From a virus (Duplodnaviria; Caudoviricetes), in IMG/VR virus record IMGVR_UViG_3300046716_000023, positions 1 to 54,756 of that record: a DNA stretch of 54,756 nucleotides, one strand, 5' to 3'. The number at the start of each line of letters is the position of its first letter. The first letter of the stretch is position 1. Positions 34,287-51,944 of this stretch are shown here, one piece after another. A program made the position numbers and the translations under genes. Below the pieces are notes generated by a model. That model made no database searches and was not told where the DNA came from. It saw nothing but the letters and a program-made list of their open reading frames with translations.

Positions 34287-34307
34287 TTGTCCCTTCCGAA
34301 GCCCAGT

Positions 34308-34594
34308 CGTAGCGAGCTCGTAGCGAGTTCGCTACGAGCCTCTCTACTACTACTACTCTACCCCGAAACACTCGCTACGTGATCGAACGAAGTTTCTGGG
34401 CGAGCTCGCTACGAGTTCGCTACGAGTTCGCTGCGTAACGTACCGTACACGGTACGAAGAAGTCAAGAGTGACTTTTCCCTCTCTCTCTATTAGAGACAA
34501 TTCTACTTATAAACTATGGGAAATAAAGGACAAGAAAACATATCTCTCTTCTTCTTTCTATCTTCCGGCGCGAACTCGCTACGAGCTCGCTACG
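34308..34594. repeat. cluster of TCGCTACG repeats (8 exact, 1 with one mismatch), tandem copies at 11-bp period
   Basis: Reverse at 34308 and 34319; forward at 34329, 34372, 34406, 34417, 34576, 34587; TCGCTGCG at 34428. Confidence 0.9.
34481..34555 (-). promoter_or_regulatory. probable leftward promoter, copy A of a duplicated element
   Basis: Shares TCTCTCTCTAT, TTCTACT and TGGGAAATAAAGGACA at identical spacing with 48439-48490; TAGAAT on the minus strand. Confidence 0.55.
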
Positions 34595-37173: not shown

Positions 37174-37185
37174 TCCCTTTCTCTC

Positions 37186-37214
37186 CGACCTGAGCATGTC
37201 AATAAACTGCTCAG
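37186..37214 (+). ncRNA. intergenic 29-nt repeat, copy 1 (predicted H-type pseudoknot)
   Basis: CGACCTGAGCATGTCAATAAACTGCTCAG. Confidence 0.65.
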
Positions 37215-37227
37215 AAAGACTCTAGCT

Positions 37228-37521
37228 ATGGGCGACACTCAGAAGAACACCGAGGGCAATCTCCCGGGCGTGATCGACACGCACGAGGTGACCCTTAAGA
37301 TCCGGGTCCCGAACAAGCCGAACATGACGGCGGACGGACTCACGGAGTTCCCCTGCACCGCGGTGTTGGTCTACTCGAACGGGACGCGCGTCGTGCTGCC
37401 GATCAGGCAGGCGAAGCCGTCCAAGGCGTCGGGCAAGCTCAACGCGTGGGGCGGTGGGAAGATGGCTCTCGAGGACAACACGCAGGTGATCGTCGGGATC
37501 AACCTGACGGTCATGGAGTAG
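37228..37521 (+). CDS. small beta-rich protein, paralog 1 of 38610-38963
   Basis: 64/80 identical residues over the shared C-terminal domain. Confidence 0.85.
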   Translation: MGDTQKNTEGNLPGVIDTHEVTLKIRVPNKPNMTADGLTEFPCTAVLVYSNGTRVVLPIRQAKPSKASGKLNAWGGGKMALEDNTQVIVGINLTVME

Positions 37522-37548
37522 TAGCTGCTCGCTCGGTTCTCAACTCTT

Positions 37549-37577
37549 CGACCTGGGCATGTCAATAAACTGCCCAA
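37549..37577 (+). ncRNA. intergenic repeat, copy 2
   Basis: CGACCTGGGCATGTCAATAAACTGCCCAA; compensatory A-U to G-C change relative to copy 1. Confidence 0.65.
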
Positions 37578-37587
37578 GGAGTTTCTC

Positions 37588-37791
37588 ATGTTGCAGATCA
37601 AGCTCGCCGCGAAGGTCATCAAAGCGTCCGACCCGTTCGCCAAGGGTCCGGAGTACGTCATCCTCGAGATCGCGTCGAGGGATCTCACGGCGGAAGAGGG
37701 AATGTTCCTCGAGACGATCTTCCCGAACACGAACAAGATCATCGAGCAGGCGCTGAACACCGAAGCGGTGATCAGCGCGATCCGTCAGTAG
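37588..37791 (+). CDS. hypothetical protein
   Basis: AAGGAG RBS directly after the repeat. Confidence 0.7.
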   Translation: MLQIKLAAKVIKASDPFAKGPEYVILEIASRDLTAEEGMFLETIFPNTNKIIEQALNTEAVISAIRQ

Positions 37792-37802
37792 TCTGAACCC
37801 TT

Positions 37803-37831
37803 CGACCTGGGCATGTCAATAAACTGCCCAG
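37803..37831 (+). ncRNA. intergenic repeat, copy 3
   Basis: CGACCTGGGCATGTCAATAAACTGCCCAG. Confidence 0.65.
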
Positions 37832-37841
37832 AAAGGTGCGC

Positions 37842-38147
37842 ATGCCGCACATCAAGGAGAAGAACGTCAACGCCGCCCAGAAGAAGGCGGACAAGTTGGA
37901 CGTGGACGAGCTGAAGAAGCTCACCATCGAGCAGGTCGCCGGACTGGCGCTGCAGGTCGACGCGACCGAGAAGGCTCTGAAGGAGCAGGCGCGGATCGTG
38001 AAGCAGCACGTGCACAAGGTCTACGGACCGCTGTGCGCGAAGAAGAAGGAGCTGGAGATCGAGTACGCCTTCCTCGTGGCCAAGCTCGAGAAGGTCAAGG
38101 AGATCAACCCGGCCATCGCCGCGATCTCCAAGCTCGCGGGTCTCTAG
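37842..38147 (+). CDS. basic coiled-coil hypothetical protein
   Basis: AAAGGT RBS after the repeat; strong codon bias. Confidence 0.7.
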   Translation: MPHIKEKNVNAAQKKADKLDVDELKKLTIEQVAGLALQVDATEKALKEQARIVKQHVHKVYGPLCAKKKELEIEYAFLVAKLEKVKEINPAIAAISKLAGL

Positions 38148-38154
38148 ACTTCTA

Positions 38155-38440
38155 GCGACATCCGGAGATAAACCGCAACAATGTGGTACGAAGCTCGCGC
38201 TCCGCCTAACATAGCGGAATAAGTCGCAACATCGCTCCCGCCTGGGTGGGGAGACTCTAATTATTAGACGTTAGGGGCAGCCCCGAACTTTGAGCCCCGG
38301 GGTATGGCGGGGAATGTGGCGCCGAACACTGCGGAGAGGCTATAGCCTTCGGGGTGCGATCCATGGCTTTGCCGCCTACACCACGATACGGCCGGGAGAT
38401 GTCGTATCGCCGGGTACTGCACACTCGGCCCAAGCCCTAA
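38155..38440 (+). ncRNA. putative structured non-coding RNA (~290 nt), family not recognised; strand inferred from context and G-U pairs
   Basis: No ORF; at least 8 complementary segment pairs, including nested long-range helices. Confidence 0.55.
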
Positions 38441-38441
38441 A

Positions 38442-38497
38442 ACAAAATTTTATTTTGTAGGCTCCTATTTGATTTTGAATGCTGTAGTATGTATGCT
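38442..38497 (+). promoter_or_regulatory. sigma70-type promoter with AT-rich upstream palindrome
   Basis: TTGATT (38469-74), 17-bp spacer, TATGCT (38492-97); ACAAAAT-ttt-ATTTTGT at 38442-58. Confidence 0.65.
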
Positions 38498-38609
38498 ATG
38501 TCGATGAGAGGTGCAGTCAGTAGGGCCGGCGCTGAGTATGTGCTCTGCCCACCCGACCGATGCAGCCCGACACGGCATGCACAGGAGCCGGTAGAACCGG
38601 TAGCGTATC

Positions 38610-38963
38610 ATGGGTGAAGTGAACAAGCAGTCCGAGGGCGCGGTCGGTGGCGGAAGCCCGGTGAAGGGACCCAACACGCCGTTCGCCACGAAGAAGGGGA
38701 ACGAGGTCGTGATCCCCGAGACCCACGAGGTGACCGTCAAGGCGCGCATCGCCAAGGCGCCGAACCTCTCGGTCGACGGGCTCACCGAGTTCCCCTGCGC
38801 CGCCATCCTCGTCTACGCCAACGGCACCCGCGTGGTGCTCCCCATCCGCCAGCCGAAGCCGTCGTCGGCCTCGGGCAAGATCAACGCGTGGGGCGGCGGC
38901 AAGATGGCGCTCGAGGACAACACGCAGGTGCAGGTGGGCATCAACCTCACCGTGATGGAGTAG
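38610..38963 (+). CDS. small beta-rich protein, paralog 2
   Basis: Paralog of 37228-37521; almost all third positions are G/C. Confidence 0.85.
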   Translation: MGEVNKQSEGAVGGGSPVKGPNTPFATKKGNEVVIPETHEVTVKARIAKAPNLSVDGLTEFPCAAILVYANGTRVVLPIRQPKPSSASGKINAWGGGKMALEDNTQVQVGINLTVME

Positions 38964-41775: not shown

Positions 41776-42029
41776 GACACCTCGTCATCATCCGCAACCA
41801 CATGACCCCGCTCGAGATCGACGTCCCACCGGTCGTCAAGTCGTTCAGGGAGGTCGAGCAGTACATCCAGAACCTCCTCGGTGGCGTGATCCTCGTGGGG
41901 TTCGTGGAGGTCCACGATCCCGAGATCCGGACCTGCCACGCGTGCAAGGGGTCCGGGATCTATCGATCGGTCAACAAGCTCGTCGAGGTCTGCACGTGCC
42001 TCAAGGCGATCGGGATCACACGCCAATGA
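41772..42029 (+). CDS. hypothetical protein with CxxCxGxG motif
   Basis: GTGA/ATGA overlaps. Confidence 0.6.
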   Translation: MRHLVIIRNHMTPLEIDVPPVVKSFREVEQYIQNLLGGVILVGFVEVHDPEIRTCHACKGSGIYRSVNKLVEVCTCLKAIGITRQ

Positions 42030-42436
42030 GCCTCGTACCGACGTACGTCCGCCTCGCGGACGGGAAGTGGTACAAGGATCCCGTGTTCCGCGTGTGGGAC
42101 GACGGGTCCTTCATCTGCATGGATGACGATGACCCACCTGAGCTGGTGAGCTTCAACATCCTGCGAGGTCATCACGCCGTGTCCCTCGAGTTGACCAGAC
42201 TTGGGTTCTCCAACGCGGACATCCGTTCAGGCACGATGGCCTGCATGCGTCAGCCGCTCGACAAGCGTTCGCGCTTCAAGCAGGCGGCTACGTGGTGGAT
42301 CCACAACGAGACCGGTGTCATCTCACCGGAGCACGTGGTGGAGAACGACGGGGTCTACGTGAAGACGCCCAACAGACAGGGTGTCTACTACGACTGGTCG
42401 ACCCACAACCCGCCACACTTGCGAGGTCCCAGATGA
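42026..42436 (+). CDS. hypothetical protein
   Basis: ATGA overlaps. Confidence 0.6.
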   Translation: MSLVPTYVRLADGKWYKDPVFRVWDDGSFICMDDDDPPELVSFNILRGHHAVSLELTRLGFSNADIRSGTMACMRQPLDKRSRFKQAATWWIHNETGVISPEHVVENDGVYVKTPNRQGVYYDWSTHNPPHLRGPR

Positions 42437-42714
42437 TCATGGTGTGGGTCGCTGAGGGAACTCCCGAACCCGTCCCGGATGAGTTCTTCCGGGACGGCGG
42501 GGTGAAGATCCCGGAATACCGAGTCAGCTACGACTCGGAGCGTCGGCGACCCTGGATGTGCGAGTGCCCGCACAACACGTACCGCAAGGTCACGTGTAAG
42601 CACATCGTCAAGTACTACCCCGAACTGAAGCGCCACCAGGAGCTCATCTCCTGGTGGCACGTTCAGATCGGCAGATCGCTCACGCCGGAAGACCGGCTTG
42701 AGCTCTTGTCCTAA
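42433..42714 (+). CDS. SWIM Zn-finger protein
   Basis: WMCECP...TCKHI (CxC...CxH). Confidence 0.75.
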   Translation: MIMVWVAEGTPEPVPDEFFRDGGVKIPEYRVSYDSERRRPWMCECPHNTYRKVTCKHIVKYYPELKRHQELISWWHVQIGRSLTPEDRLELLS

Positions 42715-43640
42715 GGGTCCACCATCGCCATCAGCAGCTCAGGCGGCGCACCCCGAAGTTCGGGCGGAAGGATCTCGTCGGCCATGATCTTGGACCACAT
42801 CAGCTGCAGCTCCGACAGGAGCCGCAACTGGAAGTCCCGACCCACGTGACACCGGTACACGTAGATCTCCACGGTGTCCGAGTCCACGAGCAGGATCTTG
42901 TCAATCCGCCCGGTGATCTCCGACCCCGGTCCGTCGCCCATCATCCAGGCGTACATGGCGATCTGGATCGCCCAACGCTCGGACAGGATCTCGAGCGGCT
43001 CGATCGCTCGAGCGTGAGGACCTTCGTCGATCCACACCGACTTCCCTTCCTCCATCCGCTGGACGTAGCGGTAGGAGTACCCCGGTTCCGGCGTCGCCCG
43101 ATTGGTGCTGAACGCCCCGGAGGTCTTCCAGTCTGTCACGATCCGCCGGCCGTTGGCGAACAGTTCCAGGTCCAGCTTGCCCCAGATCGGCACGCCGTTG
43201 ACCATGTGGACTTTGTCCGCCGGCGTGATCTCGATGTTGGTGAGGTTCTGCAAGAGTGTCCGCATGGCCGGACTCTCCTTGTAGGCGTGGTACGCCCGCA
43301 GTCCCTCCCACAACACGAGCTGCTCGAACTTGTCGAGCGATCCCTTGCGCCCGAGCATCCTGGCCTCGATCCCGTCCTCGAGCATGGAGGGCGAGAGATC
43401 CCTCCGTCCGACGGTCGACGCCAGGTGGTACTTGATGTGGGTGTCGAAGACGTTGCCCACCGCCATCTGCGGCGTCTGGGCAGGTCTCGGCGGTTTGATC
43501 TCGGGCGGTGCGAGGTATCGCATCCAATACCCCACGGGGTTCTCGCGCCACAGCATGAAGCTGGTGGGCGAGATGTAGGACGGTTTCCCGTCCGCCTGTC
43601 TCGGCGGACCATGGGAGGGAATAGATGGACTGTTGCTCAT
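42711..43640 (-). CDS. PD-(D/E)XK exonuclease (Cas4/RecB-like)
   Basis: ISPTS, GKLD, DWKT and QIAMY motifs. Confidence 0.85.
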   Translation of the reverse strand: MSNSPSIPSHGPPRQADGKPSYISPTSFMLWRENPVGYWMRYLAPPEIKPPRPAQTPQMAVGNVFDTHIKYHLASTVGRRDLSPSMLEDGIEARMLGRKGSLDKFEQLVLWEGLRAYHAYKESPAMRTLLQNLTNIEITPADKVHMVNGVPIWGKLDLELFANGRRIVTDWKTSGAFSTNRATPEPGYSYRYVQRMEEGKSVWIDEGPHARAIEPLEILSERWAIQIAMYAWMMGDGPGSEITGRIDKILLVDSDTVEIYVYRCHVGRDFQLRLLSELQLMWSKIMADEILPPELRGAPPELLMAMVDP

Positions 43641-43685
43641 GTGGTCTTGCCTTCCTTGCGGTGGTTCTCTTCTGTCGCCTGTGGA

Positions 43686-44501
43686 CTAGCCGCGCAGATC
43701 GAGCGCGGGGCAGAGCTTCCGGACTTCGTCGACGAAGATGAGTTCCTTGTAGCCCTCCTGCCCGACCATCCCGCAGAACTCCTGCGAGAGCTTGAGGATG
43801 GCGTTCATCCGCTCGTTGGCCCACCACGACGCCTTCGCGTCGCACTTCGAGAGGTGCGGGTCGTACAGGATCCCGAGCACCTGGCAGACGTTCGTCAGCG
43901 ACCACTTGCCGAAGTGGAGGATCCCGGCCTTCTGCAGCGCGTACGCGAGCGTGGCCGTGTCCTGGTAGTGGTAGTCAAACATCATCGACCACGGAAGGTC
44001 GACGCCGACGTACGTCAGCTGCTTGAGGAACGGCACGTCGAACGGGCCGACGTTGTGGCCGACGAGGTGGAACTGCGGCGAGCCGATCGACTTCCACCAC
44101 GTGAGCAGGCGCTTCGCGCACTCCTCGATCGGGATCCCTTCCTCCGGGTTCAGGCCGTTGGCCTGCAGCGCACGCGGGTGGATCGTGAGATCCTGACCGA
44201 AGCGTCCCTTGCGACCGGTCGCCTTGATGCGCTCCGAGAAACACGGACCCGTGGGATGCCACAGATCCACCGACATGATCGGTGCCAGTTCGGCCTCCAA
44301 CCCTCCGGTCTCGGTGTCCAATGCGATGTCCATGGTAGCAACCTCCTCGAAGCTCAACGTCCGTCCAGGCATCCCGACGCCCTCCTCGGTGAGGAGTTCA
44401 TGCAATCGTTCCAGACTGGAGGGACAGTCGGGTGCGTGCCGCTCTTCGCGGTTACGACCCCAACCCAACAGTACTCCCGAACAGCAATCCAAAGGCTTCA
44501 C
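43686..44501 (-). CDS. DEDDh 3'-5' exonuclease (start may be 44372)
   Basis: LDTETGGL, VGHNVGPFD and HLSKCDA. Confidence 0.85.
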   Translation of the reverse strand: MKPLDCCSGVLLGWGRNREERHAPDCPSSLERLHELLTEEGVGMPGRTLSFEEVATMDIALDTETGGLEAELAPIMSVDLWHPTGPCFSERIKATGRKGRFGQDLTIHPRALQANGLNPEEGIPIEECAKRLLTWWKSIGSPQFHLVGHNVGPFDVPFLKQLTYVGVDLPWSMMFDYHYQDTATLAYALQKAGILHFGKWSLTNVCQVLGILYDPHLSKCDAKASWWANERMNAILKLSQEFCGMVGQEGYKELIFVDEVRKLCPALDLRG

Positions 44502-44857
44502 GGCCTCATCTCCTTGACTGTGTACTTCCACCAGTTCGGCTTCTCGAACAGGAGGGGATAGTCGTGCATCGTCTCAAGGATCCAGATCCCAACGCCATGC
44601 GTCTGGAAGTCGATGAACACCGTGTACTGGTCCGGAGTCAACCGACCGGTCTTCGGGCGCTTCGTCTCGATGAACCGCGTCCCGTGTGTCGGGTGCGCCG
44701 CGAAAACGTCTGGCCAACCCGTCATCGAGTCATGCATGACGGTGATCTTGCGCACCATCCAACCCCGAGCGATCATGAATGCCCGGAGCTCTTGGTAGTG
44801 ATCCTTCTCGAGCATCGCGCCATCTTTGCCCGATCCGGCGAGCTTCTGGACCGGCAT
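44498..44857 (-). CDS. VRR-NUC nuclease (resolvase-like)
   Basis: GWPD, FIETK and GRLTPDQ. Confidence 0.85.
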   Translation of the reverse strand: MPVQKLAGSGKDGAMLEKDHYQELRAFMIARGWMVRKITVMHDSMTGWPDVFAAHPTHGTRFIETKRPKTGRLTPDQYTVFIDFQTHGVGIWILETMHDYPLLFEKPNWWKYTVKEMRP

Positions 44858-44890
44858 CTTGCGCGATCCTTTGCGGCTCCACGGGTTCAT

Positions 44891-45391
44891 CTATCCCTCC
44901 ACCGGTCCGATGGCATATGCCACCGCACCCATGTACTCCACGATGAAGTGCCTTCCAGCCTTCACCGCCTCGACGATGTCGAGCTGATGCTTCAGCACCC
45001 AGTTCGAGGACACCGTGGCAACTCCGTCCAAACCGAAGTCTGCCACGCAGTCCTTGACCTCGCGCTGATAGTCATCCCGCATCCTCTTGGTCTCGACGGG
45101 ATGCTTCTCACGCCAGGCGATGTTGGAGAGCAGCTTGCACTTCATGCAGTAGGACGTCTCGTAGTACTTCTTCCGACGTCCGTCCCAGTGCATCACCGTC
45201 TTGAACAACGTCCTCCCGTGGGGATGCTGCTTGTTCTTGCAGACCTTGTACCTGCTCGGGACCGCGGGTTTCGGTTGCGGCTTCCCAGCACGGACCATCG
45301 CTTTCTCATGACCGTTCCGAGGTCCGCGAGTCCACCCCAACTTCTCCCAATCCTTCAGCTCTTGGGCAGACTCCCTTATTCGTCGCTGCAT
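44891..45391 (-). CDS. basic hypothetical protein with Zn-ribbon-like motif
   Basis: CKNKQH...CMKC. Confidence 0.55.
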   Translation of the reverse strand: MQRRIRESAQELKDWEKLGWTRGPRNGHEKAMVRAGKPQPKPAVPSRYKVCKNKQHPHGRTLFKTVMHWDGRRKKYYETSYCMKCKLLSNIAWREKHPVETKRMRDDYQREVKDCVADFGLDGVATVSSNWVLKHQLDIVEAVKAGRHFIVEYMGAVAYAIGPVEG

Positions 45392-45540
45392 CGTTTGACC
45401 CCGCAGTTCGGGCACTTCATATCCCGCATCGCTGCCAACGTCCGGTCCATCTCGGCCAACTGCTTGGCGACGGACTTCTCCATGCGCCTGATCTCCGCCT
45501 CCAAGCGCTTCAGCGCGAACCAGCGGACGAGGAACTTCAT
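45376..45540 (-). CDS. hypothetical protein (54 aa)
   Basis: Translated by hand, MKFLVRWF...CPNC...; ATGA overlap and GGAGG. Confidence 0.5.
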   Translation of the reverse strand: MKFLVRWFALKRLEAEIRRMEKSVAKQLAEMDRTLAAMRDMKCPNCGVKRCSDE

Positions 45541-45731
45541 ACCTCCTCCAGCGTCAGGTACGCCTCACCGATCTCGGTCCGCATCACCATCTGCGGGGCG
45601 TAGATCATGACGAGCCCCTGCTTCTCCGCTGCGGAGATCGTGCGGCGATCGTGGGTCTCCACCAACGACACCATGCTCTTGGGGTCGTCGAGATCCCGCA
45701 GGAGTGCAACCATCCTAGCCCTGGTCGACAT
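45537..45731 (-). CDS. hypothetical protein
   Basis: ORF chain after primase. Confidence 0.55.
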   Translation of the reverse strand: MSTRARMVALLRDLDDPKSMVSLVETHDRRTISAAEKQGLVMIYAPQMVMRTEIGEAYLTLEEV

Positions 45732-48366
45732 GACAGAGTCGATCTCCTCTACGCTCCAAGCGGGCGTGACGCTTCTCGATGGGGACCAGCGAGATGTTGC
45801 CGATATGGATCTGACCCTCGCCGGTGTAACGTCCGGTCGGGTGCTTCGCAGGCAGCTTGCCCTTGACGGTGCGCTGGTTCCAGTACTGATGACGCTCCAG
45901 GGGCAACCAGTTGAAGAACGCCTCGTAGAACTTGGAGATCTGGATCACCTCGCCATCGACCGGCGTGCAGACGTCCTCGAGGAACTCGGTCAACTCATCG
46001 CGGTTCGCCCTCGCCTGATCTTCCTTGAGGCCGGTCTCGACGACCGGGATCCGCAGACGCTCGTTGGTCGGCGGGATCTCGAGCTTCAAGATCGTGTGCA
46101 GGAAGTGCGGAGCCTCCTCGACCAACCGCTCCATGAGCAGGTGCTTCGGGATCTCCTCCGTCGGCGGATCCACGTAGATCATCACGATCCTCGTATCGCC
46201 CACTTCCACCGGACAGTAGTCCGGCGAGTTGGCGCACTGGATGAAGTGGAGGGTGTTGTTCACGTCGTAGATGGTCTTGCCCTTGAAGTGGATGGCGATC
46301 GTCTCACCGGTGACGAGGTCCTTGATCCGGTTGTACGCCTCCTTGTTCTTCTTGAGCGAGACCTCCTCGATGATCGCGAGTACACGACCCACCAACTCGC
46401 CATTGAAGGCATCGCGCGATCGCAGTGCCTGGTCCGCCTTGGCAACACCCTTCATGGGGTCCGCAAACAACCGCCGCAAGGCCTCGTGAAAGGTCGACTT
46501 GCCAGACTTCTGCGGCCCGACGAAGAAGAGATAGGGCAAGGGTCTGGTCGGCTCCTGAAAGAGTGCAGCGGTCCAGCACTTCCCATAGTCCGCCCCGCTT
46601 GCGATACCGTATCGCTTGCACCACGGATTCTCCATGACCGCCGGGGTCAAGGTGGAGAACACATGCGCCAACAGCATGTCCCACGTCGGATGCGGACCCT
46701 CCTTCGGGGTGAACCCAAGCTGCGCCGCTCCCCGGTTCCATCGCCGACCTCCTGGATACTCGTCCTTGAACGGGATGCTCACCATCACCCACGGGTTGGT
46801 GATCGACAACCCGAGCAGCTTGTCGATGTCCGTGAAGCCTTGCGACTTGAGCACGGTGTTCACGTTGACGCGCGGCTCCCACATCCAACCTTCGTGCGAG
46901 TTGATGAACCAACCTGCGTCCTCCGAGGCCGAGACCACGTGTCGGACCACTTGATCGGGAGGCTCGGGTTCCTCTCGTGCTCCCTCGATCGTGACGACCC
47001 GCTGCCAGTATGCACCCTTCGGCCGAGCGCTCTGCAGCCAGCCGCTCTCGTGGTTGTCGCTCTCCTCACGCAGGACGCGCAGCAGGACCTTGCCAGGCTG
47101 ACCCTTGACCCCGGAGATCGCGGTCTGTCTCGCGTGGAAGAGCTGTGGCATTTCGAACTTCGGGGCACCGAGGTCCTTCAAGCAGAGCATCGCCTTGAGC
47201 GCGGACTTGAACACGAACGCACCCTTCTCGTCCTCCACACCCTCATGCGCAGCGGCAGCCGCCGCCAGCTCTGCGGGGTGGTTGAACAAGCAGCGCGTCC
47301 AACCGTTCGCGTCCTTCTGCCAGGCAGAATGCTCCCTCGCGTTCTGCGAGAAGCGTCGCACCACCCACGCGCCACCTCTGATGGGGAACATGTAGCAGTT
47401 CTTGTCGCCGCTTCCACCCTTCCCCTCGGAGATCGTGTAGAAGATGCCCTTCAGCTTCAGTTGCTCGTGCGCTCTCTTGAGCGCTACCGTGTGGGTGGTC
47501 AACATGTTGCGATCTGAGTCCCACGAGGTGAAGCAGTTCTGGGTCCGCAGGAAGTCGATCACCCTCAGGTGCTCGGCATCCAGGACCGTGTACTTCACCC
47601 GCGAGACGACCTCCTCGAAGTTAGCTTCGAGTCCGTCCATCTCGGGAGGCTTGACCTTGTGATGCTTCCCTTCGACAACGTCCGAGTGATCCTTCCAGTT
47701 CTCCGGGACCTTCGTCAACGCGGTGCCAGCCTTCACCAACGCGAAGCCTTGCGGCTTCGTGTCGCGATGCCACACCCACAGGTTCCCGCCGAGCTTGTCG
47801 ACCTGCGAGGCGAGGTTGTGTCCCACCACGCCGCTGAGCTCCGAGAGAATCGCTCTGGCCAGCGCCGCGTGGACGTTATGGTTCTCAGTGGGGATCGGCG
47901 GATCCAGGAAGACGTACAGGTGCAGACCCAGTCCTCCCTTCGAGCGGCGCACGGTCACCCAATCCACGGTGGACACTCGGTCCTTGATCTCATCGAGCTC
48001 CGTTGCGGAAAGACCCTGCACGTGGCCGATCACCGCGTCGAAGTCGAACCCCACCCAGCGCGAGCACCGAGCCTTCCAATCCCACCCCGTCATCCCGACG
48101 GCTTCGAAGTGCTTGGTGGAGAACTTCAATGGGCGATCGGTGTACTCCGGCGTGCTGTTCGCTTTCCACGGGATCCGGAACGACTTCCACGTCTCACCGT
48201 CGGCCTTCCAACCGGTCCAGTGATGACCCTGCCATTCTCCCTCAACCCGCTCTCCGCCGTCCTGCGCCACGTTGACCTGGCACTCCATGTCAGCGTTGTA
48301 CAGGTGCGCAAGTTCGGGATTGGCGTTCGTCGCCAGGAAGCCACGGATCACGTCGGTACGGAGCAT
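45715..48366 (-). CDS. primase-polymerase (AEP-type) fused to an SF3/D5-like helicase
   Basis: GFDFD and RSKGGLGLHLY; GPQKSGKST, IIEE and DTRI. Confidence 0.88.
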   Translation of the reverse strand: MLRTDVIRGFLATNANPELAHLYNADMECQVNVAQDGGERVEGEWQGHHWTGWKADGETWKSFRIPWKANSTPEYTDRPLKFSTKHFEAVGMTGWDWKARCSRWVGFDFDAVIGHVQGLSATELDEIKDRVSTVDWVTVRRSKGGLGLHLYVFLDPPIPTENHNVHAALARAILSELSGVVGHNLASQVDKLGGNLWVWHRDTKPQGFALVKAGTALTKVPENWKDHSDVVEGKHHKVKPPEMDGLEANFEEVVSRVKYTVLDAEHLRVIDFLRTQNCFTSWDSDRNMLTTHTVALKRAHEQLKLKGIFYTISEGKGGSGDKNCYMFPIRGGAWVVRRFSQNAREHSAWQKDANGWTRCLFNHPAELAAAAAAHEGVEDEKGAFVFKSALKAMLCLKDLGAPKFEMPQLFHARQTAISGVKGQPGKVLLRVLREESDNHESGWLQSARPKGAYWQRVVTIEGAREEPEPPDQVVRHVVSASEDAGWFINSHEGWMWEPRVNVNTVLKSQGFTDIDKLLGLSITNPWVMVSIPFKDEYPGGRRWNRGAAQLGFTPKEGPHPTWDMLLAHVFSTLTPAVMENPWCKRYGIASGADYGKCWTAALFQEPTRPLPYLFFVGPQKSGKSTFHEALRRLFADPMKGVAKADQALRSRDAFNGELVGRVLAIIEEVSLKKNKEAYNRIKDLVTGETIAIHFKGKTIYDVNNTLHFIQCANSPDYCPVEVGDTRIVMIYVDPPTEEIPKHLLMERLVEEAPHFLHTILKLEIPPTNERLRIPVVETGLKEDQARANRDELTEFLEDVCTPVDGEVIQISKFYEAFFNWLPLERHQYWNQRTVKGKLPAKHPTGRYTGEGQIHIGNISLVPIEKRHARLERRGDRLCHVDQG

Positions 48367-48369
48367 ACT

Positions 48370-48406
48370 TTCCTTTACTTTCCTTTAGTTTCCTTTAGGT
48401 TCCTTT
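48370..48406. repeat. four TTCCTTT units at exact 10-bp period over the primase RBS
   Basis: TTCCT at 48370, 48380, 48390 and 48400. Confidence 0.9.
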
Positions 48407-48438
48407 TCTCGAGGAAGAGGAAAAGAACGACCTCTCCT

Positions 48439-48515
48439 TCTCTCTCTATCGACCACACTTCTACTCACCACCTCTGGGAAATAAAGGACAGAGAATACAG
48501 TCACTTCTCTTCTTC
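48439..48515 (-). promoter_or_regulatory. probable leftward promoter, copy B of the duplicated element
   Basis: Matches 34481-34555 block for block. Confidence 0.55.
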
Positions 48516-48545
48516 ATTACTTACTACTCTACCCGGAGAAGAACG

Positions 48546-48618
48546 AGGAACATAGAGGATAGTTTCCTTATTTTTCCTTTTTATTCCTTTGTGTTCCTCG
48601 AGTTTCCTCCGGTAGAAT
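48546..48618 (+). promoter_or_regulatory. phased-pentamer promoter 1
   Basis: AGGAA/AGGAT at 48546 and 48556; TTCCT at 48564, 48574, 48584, 48594, 48604; TAGAAT at 48613. Confidence 0.75.
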
Positions 48619-48653
48619 GTCTCTAGTGAATGTAGGCACCGAGGGCTAGCAGC

Positions 48654-49478
48654 ATGCAGGGCTTCGATCAGTTGTACCCCGCTCTCGTGAAGCGAGCCTG
48701 GGATCACGGAGCACATCGCACGGCACGGGGAAAGCCTCATCGTGCGTTGTTCAACGTGGTGATCGACACCCTCGCCGTGGAGAACCTGATCGTCGGTGGC
48801 GGCTTCCAGAAGAAGTTCGCGATCGCCGAGCTGATGGCGTACGCTGCGGGTTGGGACGACGTCGCGTGGCTGGCGCGGTTCAACAAGAACATCGCCCAGT
48901 TCTCCGATAACGGCGTCTCGTTCTACGGCGCGTATGGTCCCCGGATGACGTGGGCAATGGGAGCTCTTGTCACACTGCTCACGGAAGACCCGGAAACCAG
49001 GCAGGCGATCTGCCAGATCTACGCACCGGAGGATCTGACTGCCGAGTCGAAGGACAAGCCATGCAACACGATGTTCCAGCTCCAGTCCTCCAAGACCGTG
49101 AACGGAACCGTGGAACTCCACATGACGATCTACCAGAGGTCCTGCGACCTGGTGTGGGGTTTGCCCTACGATCACTTCAGCTTCTCCACGCTCCTGATCC
49201 TGTTCGCGTATCAGCTTCGTATGCAGCCTGGTCGCGTGACGCGAGTGATCGCGAACGCGCATGTCTACGAGCCCGAAGCTGGTTTCGCTAACGAGGGTCG
49301 TCTCGCGAGAGCGATGCAGCCCATCGAGACCATGTTCTGGGAACCGCCGAGTGGCGGACTGTTCGCATTCCGCGAGACATGTCAGATCGCCCGTTACCAG
49401 ATCGAGGGCAAGCACGATCCTCTGACCGAAGAGGAGTTCACGGCTGACGCCCGCTTCCTTGTGGAGATCCTGAAATGA
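48654..49478 (+). CDS. thymidylate-synthase-fold enzyme, probable dCMP (hydroxy)methyltransferase
   Basis: GAYGPR, TRQA, KDKPC (catalytic Cys), QRSCDLVWGLPYD and AHVYE; Asp at the substrate-specificity site. Confidence 0.85.
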   Translation: MQGFDQLYPALVKRAWDHGAHRTARGKPHRALFNVVIDTLAVENLIVGGGFQKKFAIAELMAYAAGWDDVAWLARFNKNIAQFSDNGVSFYGAYGPRMTWAMGALVTLLTEDPETRQAICQIYAPEDLTAESKDKPCNTMFQLQSSKTVNGTVELHMTIYQRSCDLVWGLPYDHFSFSTLLILFAYQLRMQPGRVTRVIANAHVYEPEAGFANEGRLARAMQPIETMFWEPPSGGLFAFRETCQIARYQIEGKHDPLTEEEFTADARFLVEILK

Positions 49479-50398
49479 GACTGATCCTCGAAGGCATCGA
49501 TGGGGTGGGCAAGTCCTCCATCCTCGAGAAGATCGAGAAGTCGCATCGCGTGAAGTCGATCCACCTCGTGAAGCCGCCGAAAGGTGTGACGCCTCACAAG
49601 TGGTCCGACTACTTCCGCGAGGCGTACGACAACAACGAACTTCTTTCGCGGTCCCACATCTCCGAGCGGGTCTACGGGACTCTGATCCGGAACCGCTCCC
49701 TCATCGACGACTGGCAGAACTGGCTGCTCAACCTGCAGCTGGAGGTTCGCGGCTTCCGGATCGCGTACATCGTCCGGAGCCTGAGCCACGTCGAAGAGCA
49801 GATCATGAAGCGCGGCGCCGCAGCCAGCGACTACGATCTGTGGGTCGTGAAGAACTGGTTCGCGATGGGGCAGGCGTATGAGAAGTTCCTTCCCCGTCAC
49901 CTGACCCACATGATCCACAACGAGGGTCAGCTGCAACAGGCGGTCGAGCAGGCGGTCACCGTGGGCGTCAGTCCGCTCTGGACGAACCACACCGACCTCC
50001 GTGGGATCGGTTCGCTCACCCCGAAGGTGGTGCTCGTCGGGGACGAGTTCACGCTCCGTCGCCGAGATTTCGCTCACGCGAAGCCCTTCGACTTCGGCGA
50101 AGCCTCCAAGATGCTCTTCGAGGCCTTGAACCAACTGCGTCACATCTACATCACCAACTCCCGCTACGACGACCTGGGTGACATCCGCTCCCAGTTCCAG
50201 CTCCGTGACGAACTCACTCGCTTCGCGGGTGCGAAGATCATCGCGCTTGGAGCCGACGCTGCCAAGCGTCTCAAGATGCTCGGCTTCGAACCCCACCAGA
50301 TCATGCCACATCCGCAGTATTGGCGACGCTTCAAGTACGCCGACCGTGGATCGTACGTCAACGACCTGAAGCAGGTGGCGGAGAACTTCCATGGATAA
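49475..50398 (+). CDS. dNMP kinase fused to a uracil-DNA-glycosylase-fold domain
   Basis: LEGIDGVGKS and RSHISERVYG; then VVLVGDE, KPF, YITN, IIALG and PHPQY. Confidence 0.75.
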   Translation: MRLILEGIDGVGKSSILEKIEKSHRVKSIHLVKPPKGVTPHKWSDYFREAYDNNELLSRSHISERVYGTLIRNRSLIDDWQNWLLNLQLEVRGFRIAYIVRSLSHVEEQIMKRGAAASDYDLWVVKNWFAMGQAYEKFLPRHLTHMIHNEGQLQQAVEQAVTVGVSPLWTNHTDLRGIGSLTPKVVLVGDEFTLRRRDFAHAKPFDFGEASKMLFEALNQLRHIYITNSRYDDLGDIRSQFQLRDELTRFAGAKIIALGADAAKRLKMLGFEPHQIMPHPQYWRRFKYADRGSYVNDLKQVAENFHG

Positions 50399-51473: not shown

Positions 51474-51872
51474 GTGAAGGACAAGCTCCTCCGTCTGCAC
51501 GCAGACTTCGCCACGCGAGTGGCGGAGCTGTCGCACTGCGTTCGTCAACAGAACGCGTGCGTGCTGACGTCCCTCGACGGGGAGCGGGTCCTGGCATTCG
51601 GTTACAATGGGACGTGGAGGGGTGGACCCAACACGTGCACAGGTCCCAACGAACCGGGGCGCTGCGAGTGCATCCACGCCGAGGTGAATGCCCTCATCAA
51701 GTCGCGAGCTCAAGAGGACTTCGCCGCCTTCGTCACCACGAGCCCTTGCGTGAACTGCGCACGGTGCCTCGTCAACTCGGGGTGCAAGATGGTGATTTGC
51801 GGACAGGCGTACAGGGTCACCGATGGTGTGACGCTACTTCAGGGCGCTGGAGTGGAGGTTTCCTTTGTCTGA
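51474..51872 (+). CDS. dCMP deaminase-family protein
   Basis: GYNG, HAE and SPCVNC. Confidence 0.9.
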   Translation: MKDKLLRLHADFATRVAELSHCVRQQNACVLTSLDGERVLAFGYNGTWRGGPNTCTGPNEPGRCECIHAEVNALIKSRAQEDFAAFVTTSPCVNCARCLVNSGCKMVICGQAYRVTDGVTLLQGAGVEVSFV

Positions 51873-51944
51873 GGAAACTCGAGGAAAACTTCCTTTTTAT
51901 TCCTCGACATTCCTTCCCACTCCTCGTGGTTCCTCTGGTAGTAT
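51872..51944 (+). promoter_or_regulatory. phased-pentamer promoter 2
   Basis: AGGAA at 51872 and 51882; TTCCT at 51890, 51900, 51910, CTCCT at 51920, TTCCT at 51930; TGG-TAGTAT at 51936-44. Confidence 0.75.

Follow-up and report, generated by a model that had tools for sequence, protein, structure and literature searches.

A conserved phage spacer carries a micro-ORF with a candidate RAPP/RGPP arrest motif

The complete IMG/VR virus record IMGVR_UViG_3300046716_000023 (54,756 bp, with terminal repeats; hereafter the window, meaning this whole stretch of DNA) comes from a tailed phage, as judged by Pfam matches to tape-measure, lambda-type portal, capsid and family A DNA polymerase proteins. 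It contains a 462-nucleotide (nt) gap at 38148-38609, between the plus-strand genes 37842-38147 and 38610-38963, and the segment 38155-38440 inside this gap had previously been read, from its letters alone, as a structured noncoding RNA (ncRNA) or ribozyme. We find that the most constrained part of this spacer is patterned as a 13-codon open reading frame (ORF), on the same strand as both flanking genes. The best explanation for the segment is that of an untranslated stretch running from the last small gene of the rightward early block to the next promoter and carrying a translated leader. Judging from sequence comparison, we give about even chances to the view that the spacer core, which lies ahead of the next promoter, is a phage mini-gene for a leader peptide of the RAPP/RGPP arrest type and supplies a small RNA platform acting in cis.

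Protein and pattern searches located the spacer in five further metagenomic contigs (L003, L004, L008, L005 and L011), which gives six copies including that of the window. Gene-plus-spacer identity is about 84% for L003, 77% for L008 and 73% for L004, and L005 and L011 form a more diverged pair. Close variants also occur in three DNA metagenome runs, one of which (X2) shows 33 differences over 1,094 nt; no run recorded as RNA is listed as containing the spacer. Eight further genome-contig matches, as well as L012 and L013, were set aside as chance matches, and four homologues of the upstream gene product P0004 (P0006, P0007, P0010 and P0011), not placed on DNA, stand outside the spacer comparison.

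The pattern of variation shows protein-level constraint on the 13-codon ORF, which is conserved in all six copies. WYYIRGPP is encoded in the five relatives and WYEARAPP in the window, within full peptides that read MWYYIRGPPDIP in L004 and L008, MTNWYYIRGPPRIP in L003, MWYYIRGPPGYTYT in L005 and MWYYIRGPPGHTHTSLRSSV in L011. Across the eight core codons, the five non-window copies vary at five sites, all of them (5/5) synonymous third positions; a synonymous-only 24-nt window of this kind is unique among 223 ungapped windows, each read on both strands, and the minus-strand mirror of the core columns contains a stop. The opening residues MWYYI are invariant in these five copies, with synonymous changes only (MWYEA in the window), and the variant 38195 T>A, shared by runs X2 and X3, is likewise synonymous. 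In L003 the usual ATG is gone, and the frame opens with another ATG two codons further upstream; L005 and L011 have an AAGGAG at a distance of 6 nt from the ATG. These start-site features, like the synonymous-only pattern, point to translation. Past Pro-Pro, neither the sequence nor the length of the tails is conserved (3-11 residues in the relatives, 4 in the window), the whole ORF spans 12-20 codons across copies, and the motif begins at residue 6 (residue 8 in L003).

The segment had been called ORF-free, which holds as far as long conserved frames are concerned and fails for this micro-ORF, kept in six of six copies. Mechanically called ORFs of 52-58 amino acids occur on both strands of the segment, none of them frame-conserved in the relatives, and a longer coding ORF was rejected because frames of at least 25 amino acids are not kept between copies. 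A second mini-frame after the GGGGAG described below (ATT ATT .. .. TAG) was dropped, its peptide not being conserved and its frame missing in L005.

The core motif reads RAPP in the window and RGPP in all five relatives, the exchange of Ala for Gly being the sole change inside it. In the part of the literature drawn on here, RAPP and RGPP are described as the most versatile and robust arrest cores, refractory to EF-P, strongly avoided in proteomes and located near the C-termini of small upstream ORFs; in the arrest peptide CruR the two Pro codons lie in the P and A sites (PMC12992588). For ApdA and ApdP, the corresponding part of PMC10951233 reports that arrest efficiency is set by the five residues preceding RAPP. 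Our literature search turned up no phage peptide of the RAPP/RGPP arrest type; it did not cover the supplementary upstream-ORF lists of PMC12992588 and PMC10987492, which might include phage or prophage cases. The motif strings of the spacer were not found in print in the literature searched.

Small RNA structures surround the candidate stall site (coordinates in Table 1). Hairpin H1, whose 3' arm contains part of the start codon, is kept in three of the four window-type copies and is missing in L005 and L011, the two copies in which AAGGAG precedes the ATG. Hairpin H2 takes three different stems at one locus, that of the window and, in the relatives, TATTCCG/CGGAATA or T(T/C)ACACG/CGTGTGA. 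In all five relatives the 5' arm of H2, whatever its sequence, occupies positions +8..+14 counted from the first Pro codon, and the stop codon falls in the H2 loop in relatives, but in the 3' arm in L011. The window has a 10-nt deletion and a shorter, rebuilt H2 that lies wholly inside the expected ribosome footprint (within +16). RNA structure that overlaps the end of the leader ORF, and that a stalled ribosome could open, is found in five of the six copies, judged by the position of the H2 5' arm; a ribosome stalled there would cover this arm and the Pro codons.

The same Pro codons (38202-38207) are complementary to GGGTGG at 38244-38249, 36-49 nt downstream, in a helix that we call P1. All six pairs can form in the window, L004 and L008, five of six in L003 and four of six in L005 and L011, and a synonymous CCA in L008 converts a G.U pair of P1 to A-U. 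In L003, L004 and L008, H2 and a second hairpin, H2b, lie inside P1, and the resulting three-way structure reaches -23 to -26 kcal/mol, with shuffle fractions of 0.006-0.042 for P1/H2/H2b. The GGGTGG lies within the longest invariant block of the spacer, in which GGGGAGACTCTAA is kept in 6/6 copies and a Shine-Dalgarno-like GGGGAG pairs with CTCCC (GGGAG at 38249-38253 with CTCCC at 38235-38239). In addition, CTCTAAT (38255-38261) pairs with GTTAGGG (38270-38276), CTCTAA/TTAGGG being present in five of six copies, and the X2 variant 38298 C>T keeps the pair of the CCCCG/CGGGG hairpin as G.U.

On this basis, ribosomes leaving the early genes would translate the mini-gene and come to a halt with Arg-(Ala/Gly)-Pro at the end of the nascent chain and Pro-tRNA in the A site. 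Halted there, a ribosome would keep H2 and P1 open, which could alter the behaviour of the conserved RNA blocks downstream, including the Shine-Dalgarno-like GGGGAG, with changed read-through, processing or stability of the transcript running towards 38610 as the possible outcome; we infer that one of these three is the likeliest output. A more specific version can be put forward only tentatively, and we consider it doubtful: that a minimal phage arrest peptide acts as a ribosome-operated RNA switch, in which a stall on fMet-Trp-Tyr-Tyr-Ile-Arg-Gly-Pro would melt a three-way junction made of the Pro codons paired to the invariant GGGUGG plus two hairpins, and would free the 23-nt block. The freed block might then set the moment at which early transcription gives way to later transcription, or switch on an RNA further downstream, with no secretion signal or small-molecule ligand involved.

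The segment itself is real as a conserved, unannotated spacer free of long protein genes, so that part of the original prediction stands; its reading as an ncRNA or ribozyme does not find support. All ten helices listed in that prediction lie where they were placed, with complementary arms, and the pairs thus exist, but at chance level. The nested folding claimed for the segment does not rise above chance in the window copy: 200 dinucleotide shuffles have a mean of -105.87 +/- 5.55 kcal/mol, and the minimum free energy (MFE) of 38148-38445 itself comes to -105.2 kcal/mol (z +0.12); 104 of the 200 shuffles fold as well, and the minus strand gives z +0.85. A folding energy no better than shuffles had been named at the outset as an outcome that would refute the ncRNA or ribozyme reading, and this is what the window copy gives. 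Over the whole element, plus-strand MFE z-scores for five copies are +0.14, -2.82, -2.71, -1.11 and -0.89 (mean about -1.5), and for the core in six copies -0.26, -2.75, -2.85, -1.37, -0.86 and -0.73; only L003 and L004 reach about -2.8.

Comparison with relatives leads to a similar picture. In a four-sequence alignment, of which the window makes up a quarter of the cells, the 60 pairs originally listed are formed in 69.6% of cells, a paired percentage reached by 66 of 500 shuffles, with 123 of 500 reaching the covariation score. A few small plus-strand hairpins do recur, namely CTCCC/GGGAG (95% of cells), the TCCGC/GCGGA locus and ACCGCA/TGTGGT, but most of the listed helices are not kept: GCGAC/GTCGC, GCCCCGAA/TTCGGGGT, CCGGGT/ACTCGG and TCTAA/TTAGA are largely specific to the window, and the proposed crossing pseudoknot is not kept in the relatives. 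No significant consensus fold emerges, with a structure conservation index (SCI) of 0.28 for four sequences and 0.16 for six (plus-strand column-shuffle z -0.30 and -0.58), and the RNAalifold energy for four copies, -30.1 kcal/mol, includes a covariation term that is unfavourable.

We also built a model of six small hairpins, derived from the relatives and hence from the sequences in which it scores best. On the unfitted alignment 75.5% of its cells are paired, and the observed values are reached by 20/500 shuffles for paired cells, 86/500 for changes on both sides and 10/500 for the covariation score; on an alignment fitted to the model, and therefore biased, 77.8% are paired and the corresponding counts are 1/500, 9/500 and 2/500. 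We take the model as suggestive of local structure, not as a proven fold.

A stand-alone RNA of about 290 nt, folding as a whole and acting in trans or cleaving itself, could draw on the conservation of the spacer in five other contigs, the z-scores of L003 and L004, the recurrence of several small hairpins and the few shuffles that match the fitted model in paired fraction and covariation score. These last values carry the bias of the fit, however, the mean divergence of the spacer equals that of 4-fold degenerate sites, and the helices first listed are without shuffle support. Searches likewise gave no parent family: Rfam 15 covariance models have no match at gathering score across the 54,756 nt, the sole match at E <=10 within 38000-38700 is a chance long noncoding RNA (E 1.9) in the upstream gene, outside the segment, and a scan for tRNA and tmRNA found none, in agreement with the original reading of an undescribed RNA without tRNA or tmRNA hallmarks. 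Neither a canonical sigma-70 promoter nor an intrinsic terminator was found in the window segment or in the homologous segments of L004, L005 and L008. The chance-level fold, the lack of a consensus fold, the lack of promoter and terminator, and a most constrained block that is patterned as coding and not as pairing together make a stand-alone ncRNA or ribozyme unlikely, and we rate it very low among the explanations considered. The evidence agrees better with a leader RNA that acts in cis and is read by a stalling ribosome.

How much of the spacer is constrained at all can be judged against the neighbouring gene. Spacer identity to the window is 0.72, 0.65 and 0.62, compared with 0.77, 0.65 and 0.62 at the 4-fold sites of that gene, yet 136 of 314 columns are invariant and the longest invariant run, of 23 nt, is reached in none of 10,000 column permutations. 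The spacer is thus a mosaic of a few constrained blocks amid a near-neutral background, and the core blocks persist in the far more diverged L005/L011 lineage. The near-neutral mean would be expected of a functionless spacer whose patches reflect recent common ancestry and whose R(A/G)PP frame is coincidental, all the more as chance alone yields about one R[AG]PP for every 10,000 codons when this G+C-rich genome is read in six frames (11 occurrences in 109,508). We nevertheless hold such a spacer to be highly improbable: besides the 23-nt run and the blocks surviving in L005 and L011, all five variable core sites fall in one codon phase, the lost start is compensated in frame and the motif varies only between Ala and Gly.

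Downstream of the core, an A/T-rich palindrome, which in relatives is part of a longer imperfect inverted repeat (20-nt arms, 85%, in L005) and looks like an operator or UP element, precedes a candidate -10 element. Two further -10 elements of this type stand between genes, at 51939 and 48612. On account of the palindrome and the conserved TG-TAGTAT, the next gene, P0001, probably has its own promoter. Between palindrome and -10 lie two A/T-rich 17-nt direct repeats (38447-38483), spaced by 20 nt and 82% alike; in L003 the two are identical, and in L004 the similarity is weaker. Promoter-like sites at 48546-48618 and 51872-51944 consist of arrays of a TTCCT pentamer followed by GG-TAG(A/T)AT, the -10 type seen at 38485.

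These elements invite the view that the segment works at the DNA level, as protein sites acting on the promoter at 38485 or as an origin with an A/T-rich unwinding stretch, the micro-ORF being translated incidentally or its small peptide having another role. Such a control region would account for blocks conserved in sequence with little covariation, among them CGTATCGCC...ACTGCA, which is invariant when its possible partner is not, for the palindrome and direct repeats just upstream of the -10, and for the kept spacing from palindrome to TAGTAT (36 nt in the window versus 37 nt in L005). We regard it as rather unlikely, however. Repetition and palindromic symmetry are confined to the A/T-rich block, the genome has no further copy of any block, and the core sits 220-300 nt ahead of the -10. 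GC skew does not point to an origin, and the synonymous-only pattern, relocated start codon and AAGGAG indicate translation.

The proposal of an arrest leader has its own difficulties. The six copies compared include two pairs of close kin, and the window peptide differs at three of the eight core residues. No Shine-Dalgarno sequence is visible before the ATG in L004 and L008. The motif alone is insufficient without adjacent N-terminal residues (PMC12992588, in the part drawn on here), and the published RAPP/RGPP peptides considered here belong to larger proteins, mostly with localization signals, as opposed to a nascent chain that would have 8 residues in the phage. With regard to RNA, the three-way fold is not the best structure in the window, L005 or L011; the six-hairpin model fits L003, L004 and L008 at 87-97%, but the window at 69% and L005 and L011 at 58%; and its unfitted covariation is borderline, an alignment slide of -1 tying the observed score. 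Forcing the footprint open gave no consistent change in the accessibility of GGGGAG across the six copies, and we found no sequestered start site or terminator that a stall could control. P0001, finally, lies about 390 nt away, apparently behind its own promoter.

Table 1. Features of the spacer and its flanking genes, in window coordinates
Feature	Position	Strand	Remarks
Upstream gene P0004	37842..38147	+	101 amino acids, coiled-coil-like, no family; last gene before the spacer
Hairpin H1 (ACCGCA/TGTGGT)	38172..38187	+	UG of the micro-ORF start codon in the 3' arm
Micro-ORF, 13 codons plus stop	38181..38222	+	Peptide MWYEARAPPNIAE; first invariant block, 6/6 copies
Arg-Ala-Pro-Pro codons	38196..38207	+	Candidate arrest core; expected P site 38202-38204, A site 38205-38207
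Hairpin H2 (TCCGC/GCGGA, loop CTAACATA)	38201..38218	+	Directly after the arrest core
Invariant 23-nt block CTGGGTGGGGAGACTCTAATTAT	38242..38264	+	Longest invariant run
Hairpin CCCCG/CGGGG	38295..38312	+	Kept in window, L003 and L004
Hypervariable spacer	38346..38400		Barely alignable among relatives
Conserved block CGTATCGCC-N4-ACTGCA	38403..38421		Proposed partner CGATACGGC not conserved (helix 9: 66.7% of cells)
A/T-rich palindrome	38439..38456		About 36 nt upstream of the -10
Candidate -10, TG + TAGTAT	38483..38490	+	TAGTAT/TAGGAT in all copies reaching the site
Downstream gene P0001	38610..38963	+	117 amino acids, all-beta, no family

The genes around the spacer offer few functional leads. 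P0004 has seven homologues at 61-86% identity, the window's own protein excluded. P0001 is a paralogue of the product of 37228-37521 (the aligned proteins are 72% identical, and the DNA repeat matches at 79% over 248 nt), and this paralogue pair brackets hairpin repeats, two small genes and the spacer. Their family is confined to this phage group and has no Pfam, PHROG or named Atlas relative, and the AlphaFold model of P0001 (pLDDT 51.8) is too poor for a structure search. Ten neighbouring proteins gave no PHROG match and no Pfam match above cut-off, and their look-alikes in the Atlas are all without names. The phage GenBank collection yielded no DNA match, and no protein match for the P0004 homologue P0010.

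Other roles for the spacer blocks were tried and set aside. An attachment-site core is unlikely, the 20-nt core of the invariant block occurring in one metagenome contig only, that of a related phage. GGA motifs of the CsrB kind are not enriched, and AACA, at 4 occurrences versus 0.43 expected in the window and also enriched in L008, is missing in L005 and L011 and is no general feature. The invariant block can also pair with 38544-38554, in the 5' untranslated region of the next gene, but L004 lacks this pairing.

Several observations were made elsewhere in the window. A hairpin of about 35 nt (CTGGGCA..loop GTCAATAAAC..TGCCCAG) is found shortly before the start codon in each of three successive small genes (37175-37239, 37538-37602 and 37792-37856); it recurs at L008:4258-4328 and in several copies in L006, with the compensatory form CTGAGCA/TGCTCAG in one window copy and in the L008 copy. 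It may be a processing, translation-control or promoter element, and it resembles the start-associated sequences of some actinophages as well as T7 RNase III sites. A 6.3-kb X2 contig of a related phage joins this hairpin motif to a P0001-like gene (window 37835/38775) with 114 other letters between, and represents either the paralogue locus or a relative without P0004 and the spacer. At 34289-34594, the divergent junction between leftward structural and rightward small genes, dense direct and inverted repeats of CGTAGCGAGCTCGTAGCGAGTTCGC, including one 25-nt pair that is 100% complementary, look like an operator array. The stretch 42000-50000 shares its negative GC and AT skews with the leftward structural block, and long ORFs lie there on both strands (for example, 45607-47517 on the plus and 45715-48366 on the minus strand).

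In bacteria, where RAPP/RGPP arrest peptides have been described, they belong to small proteins that are secreted or membrane-bound, and they serve as sensors. Should the phage version prove to stall, the stall module would work with a handful of upstream residues, phages would use arrest in their own gene-expression programme, and very short frames would hide in 'non-coding' spacers that resemble structured RNA. A practical lesson is that a conserved spacer should be searched for micro-ORFs varying with a period of three before it is called an ncRNA.

Set beside the known RAPP/RGPP arrest peptides (ApdA, ApdP, CruR and seven upstream ORFs of Streptomyces lividans, in the parts of the source publications drawn on here), the phage peptide shares the four-residue core with only the Ala/Gly alternation, a motif placed near the end of a small upstream ORF, with few residues left before the stop, and a same-strand gene downstream. 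As in ApdP, Ile precedes Arg (..CI-RAPP there, ..YI-RGPP in the relatives here; PMC10951233). It differs in being phage-encoded and in the distance to the next gene, about 390 nt off and behind its own -10. Unlike the force-sensing 'monitoring substrates' of this group, it has neither a signal peptide nor a membrane segment, and with a nascent chain that would have 8 residues it therefore cannot be one of them. SecM has the related core RAGP, and its RGPP variant arrests even more strongly (PMC12992588, in part); at SecM-secA the stalled ribosome prevents formation of an RNA helix (PMC10951233, in part). In the phage, too, a hairpin lies beyond the candidate stall site, and this site can pair with a block further downstream, but SecM is a secreted protein of 170 amino acids and its helix masks the secA start, and no masked start site was found here.

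The structured ncRNAs of Rfam 15, self-cleaving ribozymes included, are also intergenic, conserved and endowed with hairpins; the spacer departs from them in lacking a relevant covariance-model match and a significant consensus fold. Short leader-peptide attenuators such as tnaC, which works through Rho-dependent termination, and ermCL/ermBL offer a further comparison. Stalls of the tnaC/ermCL kind need a ligand, tryptophan or a macrolide, and these attenuators differ from the phage spacer, in which no ligand, rut site or terminator was identified, the scan having covered intrinsic terminators and not Rho sites. The phage element nonetheless shares with tnaC and ermCL a very short ORF set in an untranslated stretch, with RNA structure overlapping the end of that ORF, and with tna the long untranslated spacer that follows it.

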